Shown: positions 2,067-7,220 of the stretch, piece after piece | How the letters are laid out: every line of letters starts with the position of its first letter | Numbering within the stretch: position 1 is the first letter of the stretch | Virus record (IMG/VR): IMGVR_UViG_2585427790_000002 | From: a virus | Lineage: Duplodnaviria; Heunggongvirae; Uroviricota; Caudoviricetes | Direction: 5' to 3' (one strand) | DNA length: 7,220 nucleotides | The notes under the pieces: generated by a model | Told to the model about the DNA's origin: nothing | The model's database searches: none | What the model saw: only the letters and a program-made list of their open reading frames with translations | Translations under genes and position numbers: made by a program

Positions 2067-2092
2067 GAGTTGCCCATCGATATGGGCAACTC
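2067..2092. terminator. Perfect 26-bp palindrome (GAGTTGCCCAT CGAT ATGGGCAACTC) between convergent bor and Rz; candidate bidirectional terminator or protein-binding site
   Basis: Seen directly. It sits 7 nt after the bor stop and includes the Rz stop codon. Flanks are only modestly U-rich on either strand. Confidence 0.45.
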
Positions 2093-2553
2093 TATCTGCA
2101 CTGCTCATTAATATACTTCTGGGTTCCTTCCAGTTGTTTTTGCATAGTGATCAGCCTCTCTCTGAGGGTGAAATAATCCCGTTCAGCGGTGTCTGCCAGT
2201 CGGGGGGAGGCTGCATTATCCACGCCGGAGGCGGTGGTGGCTTCACGCACTGACTGACAGACTGCTTTGATGTGCAACCGACGACGACCAGCGGCAACAT
2301 CATCACGCAGAGCATCATTTTCAGCTTTCGCATTAGCTAACTCCTTCGTGTATTTTTCATCCAGTGCAGCAACATCACGCTGGCGCATCTGCATGTCAGT
2401 AATTGCCGCGTTCGCCAGCTTCAGTTCTCTGGCATTTTTGTCGCGCTGGGCTTTGTAGGTAATGGCGTTATCACGGTAATGATTAACAGCCCATGACAGG
2501 CAGACGATGATGCAGATAACCAGAGCGGAGATAATCGCGGTTACTCTGTTCAT
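2092..2553 (-). CDS. rzpD: Rz i-spanin (inner-membrane spanin subunit), 153 aa from ATG 2553
   Basis: N-terminal transmembrane segment ([18 protein letters not shown]) followed by a charged, coiled-coil-like periplasmic domain. ATG at 2553 overlaps the endolysin stop (ATGA). The ORF-track start at 2565 is a GTG four codons upstream. Confidence 0.9.
2151..2333 (-). CDS. rzoD: Rz1 o-spanin (outer-membrane lipoprotein spanin subunit), embedded in the +1 frame of Rz
   Basis: 60-aa ORF wholly inside Rz in a different frame. Signal peptide with lipobox VVVGC, then a proline-rich mature segment (PPPPPAW...PPPDW), the typical Rz1 signature. Confidence 0.8.
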
Positions 2554-3047
2554 TGCTGACCCCACAAACAGATTTCACGCTCAATCTCACGACGAGTCAT
2601 GAGACCTTTCCATTGCTTACCGCCAGAATATGTCCAGCGACGTAGCTGATCACATGCGCCTTTGATATCGCCCTGGTTTATTTTGCGAAGAAGCGTCGAT
2701 GTTCTGAAATTGCCAGCGCCCACGTTGTAAACGAACGAGTAAAGAGCGCCGCGCGTTGTTTCCGGTATATCAACTTTTATGTACGGGTTAATTTGTCTGG
2801 CGACCGTGGCAAGGTCTTTATTCAGGAGGGCTTTGCATTCTGCTTTGGTATACGTTTTACCGAGCATGATGTCTTTTCCTGTATGCCCGTGACATACAGT
2901 CCATACACCAACAATATCTTTGTATGGTATGTAGCTGACACCTTCCAGACCATCGTTACCACTTGGGCCAGTGATTAACACTGATGCTATAGCAATTGCT
3001 CCGCCACCAATAGCAGCAGCAACGGCTTTTCGTAATGATGGAGGCAT
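2550..3047 (-). CDS. rrrD: SAR endolysin (phage-21 R-type lysozyme with N-terminal signal-anchor-release domain), 165 aa
   Basis: Gly/Ala-rich weakly hydrophobic N-terminal segment ([20 protein letters not shown]) characteristic of a SAR domain, followed by a lysozyme catalytic region ([17 protein letters not shown]). Near-identical to my recollection of phage 21 R / DLP12 RrrD. Start overlaps the holin stop (TAATG). Confidence 0.93.
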
Positions 3048-3262
3048 TATTCACCTCTCGCAGCCTTGCGCTTATCTTCTTTAATCTTGAAATAAAGGTT
3101 TGTCAGGTACGTCAGCAGGCCAAATACCAGGCTACCCAGCACACCTATTGCTGCCCACTGTGAGGGCGTGACTTTATCGAGCAGCTGTAAAAACCAGTAA
3201 CCGGCACTACCTGCTGAGGTGCCATAGGCGACACCCGTTGTTAACTTATCCATGGATTTCAT
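3047..3262 (-). CDS. essD: Class II pinholin (phage-21 S-type) with dual-start motif MKSM (antiholin from Met1, holin from Met4), 71 aa
   Basis: Sequence [24 protein letters not shown]...[22 protein letters not shown] has two transmembrane segments and a charged C-terminus. RBS GAGGTGGGG precedes ATG 3262. The ORF-track start at 3307 adds 15 residues without an RBS and is rejected. Confidence 0.9.
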
Positions 3263-3649
3263 AACCCCACCTCGCAGACAAAGCGGGTGTAAATTGAGGG
3301 AATACAACGTATCGCAAAAAAGCAGAAACGTAACAGACTCGGAGTCAGTGAATAACTCAGGTATTGAGTTATCAGCTAATATCGAGACTCAGAAAATGGA
3401 AAAACCAGCTCGACGGCGGGTTTAAGCTGTGTGACGAAGTAACCACTCTTAACAGCATAACCAATTTTTTACGTACGTAAACCACTGAATGATATTTATG
3501 AGAATGCTACCGAGTGTTCAAAACACCACCACAAATACATAAGAAAACCTCAACAAATAACCAATAAATAATTTCAGGCGTTATTTTTAGTTGATTTAAA
3601 TTAAACTGCCGAATTATAGAGCCTCCATAAATAACAACTATTAATATAA

Positions 3650-3849
3650 ATTAGCTAATAGGTTTACTTTTGTTCAAATAAGAGCCACAAATAGGTTTCG
3701 ATAGAAAAAGTTCAGATAAAAATAGAGATCTACTTCACAAATTAAATGAGAAACTAAAACTTACATCTTGAAATAATCACATTGATTAGATGAATATTTA
3801 TCGCGCAGTGACATCATTTTTTAATAATAGTTCAAAAAAAGGGCTCACG
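3650..3849 (+). promoter_or_regulatory. nmpC upstream regulatory region with two OmpR-box-like sequences (about 3661-3680 and 3761-3780); promoter not precisely mapped
   Basis: GGTTTACTTTTGTTCAAATA (3661-3680) and TTACATCTTGAAATAATCAC (3761-3780) resemble the TTTAC(A/T)TTTTG-type OmpR half-sites of ompF/ompC as I recall them. Strongly AT-rich; candidate -35 TTGATT/TTGAAA hexamers but no clean -10. Confidence 0.3.
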
Positions 3850-4932
3850 ATGAAAAAATTAACAGTGGCAATTTCTGCTGTAGCTGCATCAGTACTGATG
3901 GCGATGTCTGCTCAGGCAGCTGAAATTTATAATAAAGACAGTAACAAGCTGGATCTATATGGGAAAGTTAATGCCAAGCACTACTTCTCCTCTAATGATG
4001 CAGATGATGGTGATACTACTTATGCCCGTCTTGGCTTCAAAGGTGAAACCCAAATCAACGATCAACTGACTGGTTTCGGTCAGTGGGAATATGAATTCAA
4101 AGGCAACCGCGCTGAATCTCAAGGCTCCTCCAAAGACAAAACCCGTCTTGCATTTGCAGGCCTGAAATTCGGGGACTACGGCTCAATCGATTACGGCCGT
4201 AACTACGGTGTAGCATATGACATCGGTGCGTGGACTGACGTTCTGCCAGAATTCGGTGGCGATACCTGGACCCAAACAGATGTGTTCATGACTGGTCGCA
4301 CCACTGGTGTTGCAACTTATCGTAACAACGACTTCTTTGGTCTGGTTGATGGTCTGAACTTTGCTGCTCAGTATCAGGGTAAAAATGACCGCACTGACGT
4401 AACTGAAGCTAATGGTGATGGTTTCGGTTTCTCCACTACTTATGAGTATGAAGGATTCGGTGTAGGTGCAACCTATGCTAAATCTGACCGCACTAATAAT
4501 CAGGTTATCTACGGTAACAACAGCCTGAATGCATCTGGTCAAAATGCTGAAGTATGGGCAGCTGGTCTGAAATATGATGCGAACAACATCTATCTGGCTA
4601 CCACCTATTCTGAAACCCAGAACATGACTGTTTTTGGTAATAACCATATTGCCAACAAAGCACAAAACTTCGAAGTAGTTGCACAATATCAGTTCGACTT
4701 CGGTCTGCGTCCGTCCGTTGCTTACCTGCAATCTAAAGGAAAAGACTTGGGTGCGTGGGGTGATCAGGACCTGGTTGAATATATTGATGTAGGTGCAACC
4801 TATTACTTCAACAAAAATATGTCCACTTTTGTTGATTACAAAATCAACCTGATTGATAAGAGCGATTTCACGAAAGCATCTGGCGTTGCTACCGATGATA
4901 TCGTTGCTGTAGGTATGGTTTACCAGTTCTAA
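3850..4932 (+). CDS. nmpC: General bacterial porin of the OmpC/OmpF/PhoE family (prophage-encoded NmpC/Lc-type), 360-aa precursor, apparently intact
   Basis: Signal peptide [23 protein letters not shown] then AEIYNKD..., porin motifs and C-terminal ...VGMVYQF with terminal Phe. ATG at 3850; the ORF-track start at 3790 is a 20-codon extension. No internal stop or IS. Confidence 0.93.
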
Positions 4933-4940
4933 TTTGATTA

Positions 4941-4979
4941 CTAAAAGATATGTTGCGGGAGGCTTTGCCTCCCCAACAT
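4941..4979 (-). terminator. Candidate intrinsic terminator on the minus strand (tR'-like, downstream of the late promoter); the same hairpin sits directly 3' of the nmpC stop on the plus strand
   Basis: GC-rich stem GGGAGGC/GCCTCCC extended by ATGTTG/CAACAT, loop TTT. On the minus strand it is followed by AUAUCUUUU. A second hairpin AAGTGGCT-CCCTCA-AGCCACTT lies at 4982-5003. Confidence 0.4.
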
Positions 4980-5039
4980 ATAAGTGGCTCCCTCAAGCCA
5001 CTTCCTTTAGGAGCACAACCTTGCTTCTAACTATATAAA

Positions 5040-5120
5040 CCTTCTGTTATATATTACCCTTTATTTTTGGGGGCGTTGCAACGCCCCATTTTTAATAATT
5101 TTTAGTAAACAATTGGCATA
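5040..5120 (-). promoter_or_regulatory. Candidate Q-dependent late promoter (pR') and qut region immediately downstream of Q; exact -35/-10 not resolved
   Basis: Placed by analogy with lambdoid phages, where pR'/qut lies just 3' of Q. Minus-strand candidates include TTGCAA (5081-5076) with GTAATA/TAATAT 17-19 nt downstream. Purely positional and motif-based. Confidence 0.3.
5069..5105 (+). terminator. Rho-independent terminator for the plus strand (likely nmpC terminator): GC hairpin plus T-tract
   Basis: GGGGCGTTGCAACGCCCC (perfect inverted repeat) followed by ATTTTTAATAATTTTT on the plus strand. On the minus strand the hairpin is followed by A-rich sequence, so it is not a good minus-strand terminator. 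Confidence 0.55.
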
Positions 5121-5504
5121 TTAATTAGAGTTATTAACAACGATATCCATCTCTAACCGGATATCTAATGCCATTAACATCCCTTCAATTATGCCCTCAG
5201 CCTTCTGTAACCTTTTCCCGATATAACCATCAGAGCAGCAATGCTTACCTGCCAGTGACATGAATGTCATACCGACTACATAATAATCTACTAATAAATC
5301 GTGCAAATCGCTGTTGTTCTTTTTCAGACGGGCCATGCACCCGCAAATAATCATCGCGTCATCGTCACAACATTGCGGGCGAGATTTTACTTTTGAAGTA
5401 ATTAATCCCTTAAAACCGGCGGCAATGGACGACCAGGTCACATCTTCATGATTATTAGCCGCCCACGCTCCCCAACGCTCAAGAACCATCTGAATATCAC
5501 GCAT
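5121..5504 (-). CDS. quuD: Late-gene antiterminator Q (phage 82/DLP12 QuuD type), 127 aa
   Basis: [24 protein letters not shown]... with Cys-rich segments ([15 protein letters not shown]). ATG at 5504 preceded by GGAG. The ORF-track start at 5519 is a TTG five codons upstream. Confidence 0.92.
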
Positions 5505-5589: not shown

Positions 5590-5730
5590 TCATACTCCTG
5601 CTCCTGTCAGGGTTTTGGCGTAATTCTTCAGTATTCGGTAATCGGTCAAAACAGAACCGGGGAAACGATATAAGCGCAGATGCCCCCAGCGGTGGCGAAG
5701 AAGTTCTGCCATATAAAACTCAAACATCAT
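5590..5730 (-). CDS. ylcG: Small hypothetical protein (YlcG-like, 46 aa); absent from the ORF track because it is under 60 aa
   Basis: Hand translation of the minus strand gives [46 protein letters not shown]. The ATG at 5730 overlaps the rusA stop (ATGA). Size and position between rusA and Q match DLP12 ylcG. Confidence 0.6.
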
Positions 5731-6089
5731 TCATTCCCCATTTCGGTGATGGTCAGTTCCAGCCTCCCACCTTTGGTAACAGGCATCTTCACAACGCGGT
5801 AATCAACGACCTGAGCATCATCCAGCCAGAAACCTGCTTTGGTGAGTGCGTCAAAAGCGGCTTTTTGCAGATTATCCAGGTCACGGCGACGGCGATCCGG
5901 CATGTGGCACTCAATACGGATTTTCACTGGCATAGCCAGGCCGATATCCAGCATTGCGTTTTTAATGATTCGGGTGACGTTATCGCGGTATGCCTGCCCT
6001 TCTGCGCTGATGTGCGTGCGCCCGCGATTATGGCGGTAATAGCGATTATTGCTCGGAGGCCAGGGTAATGTGATGCTGTAGGTATTCAC
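5727..6089 (-). CDS. rusA: RusA Holliday-junction resolvase (endodeoxyribonuclease RUS), 120 aa
   Basis: [38 protein letters not shown]... is recognisably RusA. Start codon is GTG at 6089, overlapping the ybcO stop (GTGA). Confidence 0.93.
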
Positions 6090-6376
6090 GCCTTAATAAC
6101 CCCCTCTTTCAGCCAGATAACCTGTGTTCTCGCCATACCTTCCAGCGCGCATTCTTTTGCATATGCAGCATCGACAAAATGTGTGCGGCGGTCGATTTCG
6201 TCGTGGCAGGCAGAACATGCAATGGTGGCAATCAGGTCTGGCGGTTTGATACCGGTACCGCACAATCCAGCCAGCCGGATATGTGCCAGTACAGACGTTT
6301 CAGAATTGCCATTACATACGCCAGGGATTCTTACCTGGCATTCCCGACCACGCGCTGCTTTTCTCAAATCAGCCAT
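6086..6376 (-). CDS. ybcO: DUF1364-family Cys-rich putative nuclease/zinc-binding protein (YbcO-like), 96 aa from ATG 6376
   Basis: ATG at 6376 preceded by AGGAGGAATC. Several Cys/His residues ([11 protein letters not shown]). The ORF-track start at 6415 is 13 codons upstream with no RBS. Confidence 0.85.
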
Positions 6377-6539
6377 GATTCCTCCTTGCTGCCAGTCGCA
6401 ACCATTTTTTATCAACCAGGCTGGCGGTATATCCGAGCAGAGTTGGTATTTCGGATGGCTTCAGCTCAGGTTTACGCTTACGACGATTTGGTACTTTGTA
6501 GATGTGTCCGTTCATGACACGAATAAGCGGTGTAGCCAT
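6369..6539 (-). CDS. ninE: NinE-family small protein, 56 aa
   Basis: [59 protein letters not shown] at 6539 preceded by AGGAGG and overlapping the upstream gene's stop (TAATG). Its 3' end overlaps the ybcO start by 8 nt. Confidence 0.85.
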   Translation of the reverse strand: MATPLIRVMNGHIYKVPNRRKRKPELKPSEIPTLLGYTASLVDKKWLRLAARRNHG

Positions 6540-6939
6540 TACGCCTCCTGCTTGTCGCGCAGCAGCTGGAACTCGCAGCGCTGCGGAATAGTCAGGTGGC
6601 AACCAATATTCATCGCCCAGGCTTCAACCTTACACAGGAAGACATACATCTCTCCGGTATCAAGATCGGAGGTATGGCGTAACGACTGGATAGTGGTGAT
6701 ATCACCGGTTACGACATCAACCAGTTCTTTGGTTTCATAACCGAGATAAGTGTGTTTCAGAGCATCCTTCACCCACTCTGGCGTAGCGAAAGTCTTACCC
6801 CGGCTGATGAGGTATTCGCTGATTTCGGTGTACCACATGTGGCTTAAGCTATTTTGAGACAGGCTGCGCTTATCGCGCCATGGCTTCAGTACCATGCGGA
6901 AGCACTTGCCGTCCTCCAGATAAGGCTGGAGCTGCTGAC
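6539..6939 (-). pseudogene. ybcN: NinB/Orf-family recombination protein gene (YbcN-like), 5'-truncated by the IS insertion at about 6940
   Basis: Contains RSLSQNSLSHMW, resembling the lambda NinB motif RSLDQNRKLW. The frame stays open upstream of the track's Met (6895) right up to the IS end, with no start codon, and the product is about 20-30 aa shorter at the N-terminus than lambda NinB. Confidence 0.7.
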
Positions 6940-7220
6940 TGAACCGCCCCGGGTTTCCTGGAGAGTGTTTTATCTGTGAACTCAGGCTGCCAGATCATCG
7001 TTTCCGATGGAAGCATAATAAGCTTTTTCTGCTTCTGCCGGAGGAGTATGGCCCAGCCTTTCCAGCAATCGTCGATTGTTATACCAGTCCACCCACGTGA
7101 GTGTGGCCAGTTCCACTTCTGCACGGTTTTTCCAGCTCTTACGGTGTATTACCTCCGCTTTGTAAAGACCATTGATGCTCTCCGCCATCGCGTTGTCATA
7201 CGAGTCGCCTGTACTTCCTG
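6940..7220 (-). mobile_element. Right end of an IS3-family insertion sequence (IS629/IS3411-like terminal inverted repeat); element continues beyond the window
   Basis: Terminal sequence TGAACCGCCCCGGGTTTCCTGGAGAGTG starting at 6940 (5'-TG end typical of IS3 family; matches my recollection of the IS629 inverted repeat). It abuts the truncated ninB-like gene and lies 42 bp beyond the transposase stop. Confidence 0.75.
6982..7220 (-). CDS. IS3-family transposase OrfB (DDE integrase core), C-terminal fragment; N-terminus outside the window
   Basis: The frame is open from the window edge: ...GSTGDSYDNAMAESINGLYKAEVIHRKSWKNRAEVELATLTWVDWYNNRRLLERLGHTPPAEAEKAYY..., a typical rve-domain C-terminus (YDNA...ES.NG motif region). 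Confidence 0.85.
   Translation of the reverse strand, partial: GSTGDSYDNAMAESINGLYKAEVIHRKSWKNRAEVELATLTWVDWYNNRRLLERLGHTPPAEAEKAYYASIGNDDLAA

Follow-up and report, generated by a model that had tools for sequence, protein, structure and literature searches.

An intact NmpC/Lc-type porin gene between the antiterminator gene Q and a putative Stx-type late promoter in a DLP12-type prophage segment

Introduction

In phage lambda, the late promoter pR' directly follows the antiterminator gene Q. The closest described relatives of the locus studied here are lc of phage PA-2 and nmpC of the DLP12 prophage in Escherichia coli K-12, for which the porin, its antisense position, the IS5 lesion of the K-12 copy, the IpeX 3' untranslated region (3'UTR) and the promoter immediately upstream of essD are all already known. 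Castillo-Keller et al. reportedly found in 2006 that the IpeX 3'UTR lowers OmpC and OmpF. IpeX is also listed as an ompC regulator (PMC3333887). On the lysis side of the K-12 locus, a fragment from upstream of essD drives a lux reporter, control of the essD operon by Q and RpoE is cited, and the DLP12 lysis genes are expressed in K-12 with phenotypes (PMC7918800). In the Shiga toxin (Stx) phages of the Sakai strain, the pR' transcript, StxS, has a length of 258 nt (PMC7547250).

Here we describe a 7,220-nt stretch of a tailed-phage record (IMG/VR IMGVR_UViG_2585427790_000002), hereafter the window, and compare its porin gene and late promoter with those of these systems.

Results

Gene content of the window

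The window is a Q-to-lysis segment, and its late region follows the standard lambdoid order of the DLP12/qsr' type, as judged from a six-frame list of open reading frames (ORFs) and Pfam scans (Table 1). The phage genes of the late region are on the minus strand and the porin gene is on the plus strand; the annotations of K-12 DLP12 and E. coli STEC17-190 show the identical gene order. The C-terminus of an IS3-family transposase (6982-7188, minus strand; Pfam rve_3 and rve_2) adjoins the prophage. The resemblance to E. coli prophages of the DLP12 type ends at about 6937-6939, and the ybcN/NinB-like ORF has therefore been 5'-truncated by insertion (118 aa against 151 aa in K-12).

Two side observations concern the neighbouring annotation. 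The bor gene is found between Rz and the packaging side, antisense to the late operon, as in lambda. Several database records carry small 'hypothetical proteins' that overlap the pR' leader or the porin ORF, equivalent to window 3252-3425 (plus strand) and 4183-4731 (minus strand), and more such annotations occur at 2995-3126 and 3208-3342 of comparison record L002 and at 2428-2637 of L001. These annotations, which fall within the late leader or the spacer or run antisense to the porin, look like spurious calls.

Table 1. Coordinates of genes and regulatory features in the window, with the basis of each or a remark
Feature	Position	Strand	Basis or remark
ybcN/NinB-like gene, truncated	6539-6895	minus	ORF list, Pfam
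ninE		minus	ORF list, Pfam; listed between the ybcN/NinB-like gene and ybcO
ybcO	6086-6415	minus	ORF list, Pfam
rusA	5727-6089	minus	ORF list, Pfam
ylcG		minus	Listed between rusA and Q
Antiterminator Q	5121-5504	minus	QuuD type, 127 aa; Pfam PF06530 (Phage_antitermQ), E 4e-53
Structured porin 3'UTR	4933-5093	plus	About 97% identical to the K-12 and PA-2 sequence published as IpeX
Hairpin 4948-4981 read in the Q direction	4943-4981	minus	Followed by CUUUU; -22.7 kcal/mol, z -5.0
Porin, NmpC/Lc-type	3850-4932	plus	360 aa plus stop
Porin promoter and 5'UTR	3701-3849	plus	K-12 start-site mapping, conservation
pR' unit, homologue of the Stx-phage late promoter	3400-3481	minus	Local alignments to H-19B, 933W and PhiR40_1
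pR' -35, TTTACG	3481-3476	minus	16-nt spacer to -10
pR' -10, TATGCT	3459-3454	minus	TATCAT in H-19B
Conserved initial transcribed block, AAGAGTGGTTAC	3450-3439	minus	Invariant core
Putative late start, A	3447	minus	Checked against the 258-nt StxS length
pR'-proximal hairpin with U5	3429-3400	minus	Hairpin and T-run shared with H-19B and 933W
Late leader, from hairpin/U-tract to holin start	3263-3399	minus	Stem-loop just before the holin ribosome-binding site; dual start MKSM; putative function
Lysis cassette, holin to Rz/Rz1	2092-3262	minus	ORF list, Pfam
Holin, P21-type	3047-3262	minus	ORF list, Pfam; homologous K-12 and STEC17-190 annotation
Lysozyme, SAR-type	2550-3047	minus	ORF list, Pfam; homologous K-12 and STEC17-190 annotation
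Rz	2092-2553	minus	ORF list, Pfam; homologous K-12 and STEC17-190 annotation
Rz1	2151-2333	minus	ORF list, Pfam; homologous K-12 and STEC17-190 annotation
bor	1767-2060	plus	Beyond Rz; antisense inside the late operon
ybcV, ybcW, ylcI			Listed after bor

The porin gene and its prevalence

The plus-strand ORF spans 3790-4932. All annotated homologues use the start at ATG 3850, and the in-frame ATG at 3790 is not the start codon because it lies upstream of the mapped transcription start. Read from 3850, the gene encodes 360 aa and reaches its stop codon (4930-4932) without frameshift or internal stop. The signal peptide (3850-3918) is identical to the 23-aa sig_peptide annotated for PA-2 Lc (J02580), the mature protein begins AEIYNK and the C-terminus reads VYQF. 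Pfam Porin_1 (PF00267) is matched end to end, over profile positions 1-337 of 337 (E 3e-153) and with no truncation; the PHROG 410 match also covers the full length, and the NCBIfam model 'porin OmpC' is matched at 518 bits against a cut-off of 484. Matches to solved OmpC, OmpK36, PhoE and OmpF chains extend from mature residue 24 to the last residue, the C-terminal Phe, with E values down to 1e-137. Given this end-to-end similarity to solved OmpC, PhoE and OmpF chains, the protein would be expected to form a trimeric 16-strand barrel with pore activity.

The protein shares 91% identity with PA-2 Lc and 92% with fragment 1 of K-12 NmpC, at least 90% with both type members, and the value rises to 98% for phage ev099, about 100% for E. 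coli STEC17-190 and 100% for E. coli strain 504239. For the window as a whole, the closest of the complete E. coli genomes matches at 97.9%. By every sequence criterion tested, the protein is a member of the general bacterial porins, within the NmpC/Lc subgroup. Compared with the Lc/K-12 type, it differs in three short segments (alignment columns of about 182-188, 218-232 and 268-272), which presumably are surface loops. The gene is antisense to both of its flanking genes, Q and holin. K-12 nmpC is split by IS5B after codon 346.

Thirty-six phage records, those of PA-2, ev099, Perceval and the PhiR series among them, contain the 1.8-kb segment from Q through the porin to the holin with 91-98% identity. 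Among 5,426 complete E. coli genomes, 2,503 have 80% or more of the porin gene, and the exact porin protein is indexed in 17,488 blocks of an assembly collection. We sampled 80 IMG/VR viral contigs encoding an identical Q. The layout of spacer, antisense porin, second spacer and holin was seen in all 76 of these that were long enough, and the porin was intact, at 360 or 365 aa, in 75 of 77 informative copies; of the other two, one is interrupted by an insertion, like the K-12 copy, and one has a lesion at the start. Intact porin genes are normal at this locus, and the K-12 copy is exceptional. The porin alleles occur in free combination with various spacer and holin alleles, a sign of recombination inside the module. 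Two allele classes accompany the identical Q, one of 360 aa (44 loci) and one of 365 aa, the Lc/K-12 type (31 loci).

Porin promoter, 3'UTR and terminator

The porin gene has its own promoter. A published K-12 nmpC start site, placed 45 nt upstream of the gene by SMRT-Cappable-seq (576870(-), b0553|b0552; PMC6131387), maps to window 3805 (G), and the window is identical to K-12 over 3765-3815. A plausible promoter consists of TTGAAA (3768-3773), an 18-nt spacer and GAATAT (3792-3797), and the block 3701-3880 is almost invariant among 56 distinct sequences. In prophage Perceval, expression of a close homologue of the porin exceeds the prophage background 10-fold (PMC9928086); by analogy, the window porin is probably a lysogen-expressed moron. 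The 1986 PA-2 record annotates two 'CRP binding sites', of which one maps to 3427-3447, within the initial transcribed region of the late promoter unit, and the other to 3722-3742, about 73 nt upstream of the porin start.

Q and the porin gene are arranged tail to tail, with 188 nt between their stops. This spacer is almost invariant (block identities 0.92-1.00) and about 97% identical to PA-2 and K-12 over the 188 nt. On the porin strand it forms a structured 3'UTR, which we take to be the IpeX element of Castillo-Keller 2006, with hairpins at 4948-4981 and 4982-5003 and an intrinsic terminator hairpin at 5070-5087 whose U-tract ends at 5093. The fold has a minimum free energy of -63.2 kcal/mol (z -8.35). 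There was no Rfam match anywhere in the whole window at E<=1, and IpeX is thus not a curated family. K-12 Term-seq gives porin-strand 3' ends at 574367(-) and 574476(-) (PMC7815308, supplement 1), which map to window 5093 and 4984, respectively. The former follows hairpin 5070-5087 and its U-tract, so that the porin has its own terminator as well as its own promoter, and the latter is 3 nt past hairpin 4948-4981.

Read in the Q direction, the hairpin at 4943-4981 could stop unmodified early transcripts and is a putative terminator on that strand. The K-12 Term-seq listing contains no Q-sense 3' end at the equivalent of this hairpin (PMC7815308). Rho-dependent read-through of the K-12 porin-sense transcript into quuD is recorded in the same source (Rho region 574331(-); PMC7815308, supplement 2), and the porin and Q units are therefore not perfectly insulated from each other.

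Much of what the first-pass annotation had said of the gene is borne out by these results. It had named an NmpC/Lc-type porin, intact with a full signal peptide and a C-terminal Phe, on the strand opposite to the late genes, and had described the K-12 DLP12 copy as disrupted by IS5; each of these points agrees with what was found above. It had also pictured the porin gene as a lysogen-expressed outer-membrane gene able to alter surface permeability and the phage-receptor profile, for which expression of the Perceval homologue and the K-12 nmpC start site provide support.

The late promoter

Q of the window belongs to the Q933W/H-19B family. Over residues 1-117, it is identical to H-19B Q at 98 of 117 positions (84%) and to 933W Q at 94 of 117 (80%), and it has a distant match to the Q21 structures 6JNX and 6P18. 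Because of this identity, a promoter type shared with these phages is expected. On the minus strand, positions 3482-3399 can be aligned with what immediately follows or overlaps the end of Q in H-19B and 933W, and also with a segment of PhiR40_1. With a 111-nt pR' query, 362 phage records match, and in the Stx phages the match falls where Q ends; in the 933W record, the matching stretch carries the labels 'promoter, homologous to pR'' and 'terminator, homologous to tR'', both as putative. The window thus contains a cognate pR', a conserved initial transcribed region and a hairpin, the last weakened in this allele. By homology, this is a candidate Q-responsive promoter in this strain, and hairpin 3429-3400 is a predicted terminator.

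In H-19B, 258 nt separate the A located 7 nt after TATCAT from the end of the U-tract of the second terminator. Since this distance equals the reported length of the pR' transcript, we fixed the late start at window 3447. The pR' unit is about 140-220 nt upstream of the holin gene, with pR' itself about 185 nt before the holin ATG, and pR' (3481-3454) does not adjoin Q, whose stop (5121) is about 1.64 kb away. Conservation was measured over 56 distinct porin-holin spacer sequences: 3481-3421 is invariant, and block identities over 3700-3485 are 0.72-0.96.

The late promoter was located by homology, not by consensus scoring. The pR' hexamers match the consensus at only 8 of 12 positions, and consensus scoring cannot place the late promoter because a relaxed hexamer scan gives 8/12 everywhere, the pR' homologue included. 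A promoter and terminator scan returned no late-sense promoter in either spacer, only the porin terminator and a site inside Q. Within 4933-5120, the best late-sense matches were 8/12 with spacers of 15-19 nt, none above the scan threshold, and local alignment against the Q-downstream regions of related phages revealed no pR' homology in the 188-nt Q-porin spacer.

Three other guides to the late promoter were set aside. A pR'/tR' read by hand in the Q-porin spacer (TTGCAA, 19 nt, TAATAT, then a hairpin and CUUUU) was dropped after the alignment with H-19B and 933W. Phage 1H12 was unusable, having a related Q without a homologue of the pR' unit. The reporter fragment of PMC7918800, once its primers were mapped, proved equivalent to window 3139-3916, or -654 to +123 relative to the essD ATG; its label of '-121 to +650' was accordingly rejected as denoting a start inside the porin 5'UTR, and it fixes no start site.

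K-12 Term-seq has no late-sense 3' end at the equivalent of hairpin 3400-3429, and K-12 SMRT-Cappable-seq lists no forward essD operon (PMC6131387), so that pR' activity is not directly seen in uninduced K-12. Cappable-seq tables gave no usable entry for the region. The hairpin is polymorphic at position 3407. G, found in K-12 and about two thirds of distinct sequences, gives a perfect CCCGC/GCGGG stem, whereas T, found in the window, PA-2, ev099 and about one third of distinct sequences, breaks the 5-bp GC stem of K-12 and favours an alternative CAGCUU/GAGCUG pairing. The window allele of hairpin 3400-3429 folds no better than shuffled sequence (z 0.38). This G/T polymorphism may alter the leakiness of the lysis cassette. 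With a weakened hairpin and no counterpart of the second Stx terminator at +258, the Q dependence of the lysis genes may be partial, which would fit the reports of DLP12 lysis gene expression and phenotypes in K-12.

The first-pass annotation had set the porin between a Q/late-promoter region and the holin. The porin does lie between Q and holin, but the late promoter does not accompany Q, its homologue at 3481-3400 being on the holin side. That reading had also required late transcription to cross about 1.6 kb of antisense porin sequence and the porin promoter, and had described porin and late transcription as convergent. Neither statement is supported: the sole homologue in the window of a known pR' for this Q family is on the minus strand past the porin, leaving no forced traversal, and the two predicted starts, about 3805 (plus) and about 3447 (minus), are divergent. 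They are some 358 bp apart in a region of 29-37% GC. Convergence with the porin is confined to the early transcript encoding Q.

The interval between the porin promoter block and pR' (3483-3700) is the most variable stretch of the module, with identities in the range given above, indels and 29-36% GC. The corresponding K-12 nmpC/essD spacer has been listed among H-NS-bound 'promoter islands' (PMC3661553). It is also listed as an RpoS-holoenzyme SELEX peak.

The end of Q as a junction

The C-terminal tail of Q diverges after LEMD (codon 117-118, window position of about 5150). Homology among the Q proteins of the window, 1H12, PhiR40_1, H-19B and 933W ends right after this motif (comparison loci 4216-4593 in record L016, 4216-4581 in L017 and 2503-2937 in L007), and past it both the short tail and the insert differ from phage to phage. 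In PhiR40_1, an antisense gene of 148 aa with no Pfam match is situated between Q and the pR' unit; in 1H12, where Q is 84% identical, an antisense Blc lipocalin gene follows Q. Cargo seems to have been inserted repeatedly at the Q/pR' junction. In the window, the cassette at this junction is about 1.67 kb long, from roughly 3483 to 5150, and comprises an AT-rich promoter region, the porin ORF, the structured 3'UTR and the terminator.

Discussion

We propose a model in which the porin cassette is inserted between Q and the pR' on which Q acts, the porin and late units are divergent, and Q-modified polymerase need not cross the porin. We give this reading a probability of about 0.8. The porin would be transcribed rightward from its own sigma-70 promoter (about 3805) and transcription would stop at the terminator at 5070-5093, adding an OmpC/OmpF-like channel in the lysogen. 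The late operon would start leftward at about 3447 from the Stx-type pR'. Q, supplied in trans, would load at pR', and the polymerase would then be carried past the hairpin and U-tract at 3429-3400 into the genes for holin, lysozyme and Rz/Rz1. Since Q acts in trans, viable phages with a Q-porin-pR' layout fit this model. The layout is present in the active prophage Perceval, in ev099 and in the PhiR phages, PhiR40_1 has the same order of Q, antisense gene and pR' unit, and in 434B the whole DLP12 block of Q, late promoter and lysis genes is found together with nmpC::IS5 (PMC9119081). Also in favour of the model, the K-12 fragment equivalent to window 3139-3916 drives a lux reporter (PMC7918800).

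The early transcript may add a further layer to this arrangement, although we regard this as a doubtful possibility. In such a complement to the model, the N-antiterminated delayed-early transcript from pR that includes Q would, during lytic growth, pass hairpin 4981-4948 and continue antisense through the porin, where interference or pairing would shut off the porin and IpeX, with a degree of read-through into the lysis genes. There is true convergence of Q and the porin across the 188 nt between their stops, and the late-sense hairpin, with 4 U only, is likely a modest terminator. N-type antitermination overrides terminators of this sort, as is established for lambda. The read-through of the porin-sense transcript into quuD in K-12 also speaks of imperfect insulation (PMC7815308). 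However, crossing of the porin by the early transcript is not required for late gene expression.

It is quite unlikely that the porin is a silent passenger, kept off by H-NS under normal conditions, and that its arrangement is without regulatory consequence. The low GC content upstream of the gene (29-37%) and the H-NS-bound 'promoter island' in the K-12 nmpC/essD spacer (PMC3661553) are in line with silencing. Against it, the K-12 nmpC start site is detected and strong 3' ends occur at the nmpC terminator, Perceval NmpC stands 10-fold above prophage background (PMC9928086), and the intact ORF in 75 of 77 informative viral loci argues for selection.

A pR' directly downstream of Q as in lambda, from which Q-modified polymerase would cross about 1.8 kb of antisense porin 3'UTR, ORF and promoter in convergent transcription, is very improbable: pR' does adjoin or overlap the end of Q in H-19B and 933W, the conserved Q-porin spacer with its strong late-sense hairpin and CUUUU is readable as a tR', and 1H12 has a promoter-like site and a sense terminator after Q and before its antisense lipocalin gene, but the spacer and the pR' unit of this Q family are not homologous, its promoter-like matches (8/12, 15-19 nt spacers) do not pass the threshold, its conservation is accounted for because it holds the 3'UTR and terminator of the porin, K-12 3' ends having been mapped on the porin strand alone, and a bona fide, invariant pR' homologue exists on the holin side.

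Under the divergent model, one may speculate further about the junction itself, in an extension that we think rather unlikely as a whole. The LEMD-pR' junction would be a recurrent insertion point for opposite-strand cargo that is independent of Q and yet faces the early transcript. The double-faced hairpin region of the 188-nt spacer would then have a triple role, as the IpeX 3'UTR, as a stop in the lysogen for early transcripts bearing Q, and as a collision zone that silences the porin upon N-type antitermination.

The useful correction is one of architecture, namely that cargo is placed between Q and pR' in this module. With the cargo so placed, gene order alone is not enough to predict antisense read-through, shut-off of the porin by late transcription or Q-dependent effects on the porin. 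Beyond correct annotation the locus has little significance, and an intact copy is the common state.

Of the known systems, PA-2 lc and K-12 DLP12 nmpC are closest, sharing with the window the gene family, the locus and the order of Q, 188-nt spacer, antisense porin, AT-rich spacer with pR', P21-type holin, lysozyme and Rz. The proteins are 91-92% identical and their signal peptides are the same. The window allele differs in encoding 360 rather than 365 aa and in point changes in the terminator loop and the pR' hairpin; unlike K-12 nmpC, it is not interrupted by IS5.

The Stx phages H-19B and 933W have in common with the window the Q family (80-84% over 117 aa), pR', the initial transcribed region and the first hairpin with its U-tract, as well as the use of the Q-to-holin interval as a cargo site. 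In these phages, the end of Q and pR' overlap; their cargo (tRNAs and stx) is downstream of pR', on the same strand and Q-dependent. In the window, by contrast, the cargo is upstream of pR', on the opposite strand, under its own promoter and Q-independent. The effective tR' of the Stx phages is the second terminator at +258, which ends StxS and has no counterpart in the window.

Likewise, the bor and lom morons of lambda encode outer-membrane proteins, have their own promoters in the lysogen and are embedded in the late region. The difference is that bor, which the window also carries, is antisense inside the late operon and the porin is not; it is bor, unlike the porin, that is truly crossed antisense by late transcription in the window. 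With chromosomal OmpC, OmpF, PhoE and OmpK36, the porin shares a full-length match to the 16-strand family (E 1e-116 to 1e-137 to solved structures). It differs from these general porins in being borne by a prophage under another promoter and in having a 3'UTR that, according to the published IpeX work, acts against host porins.
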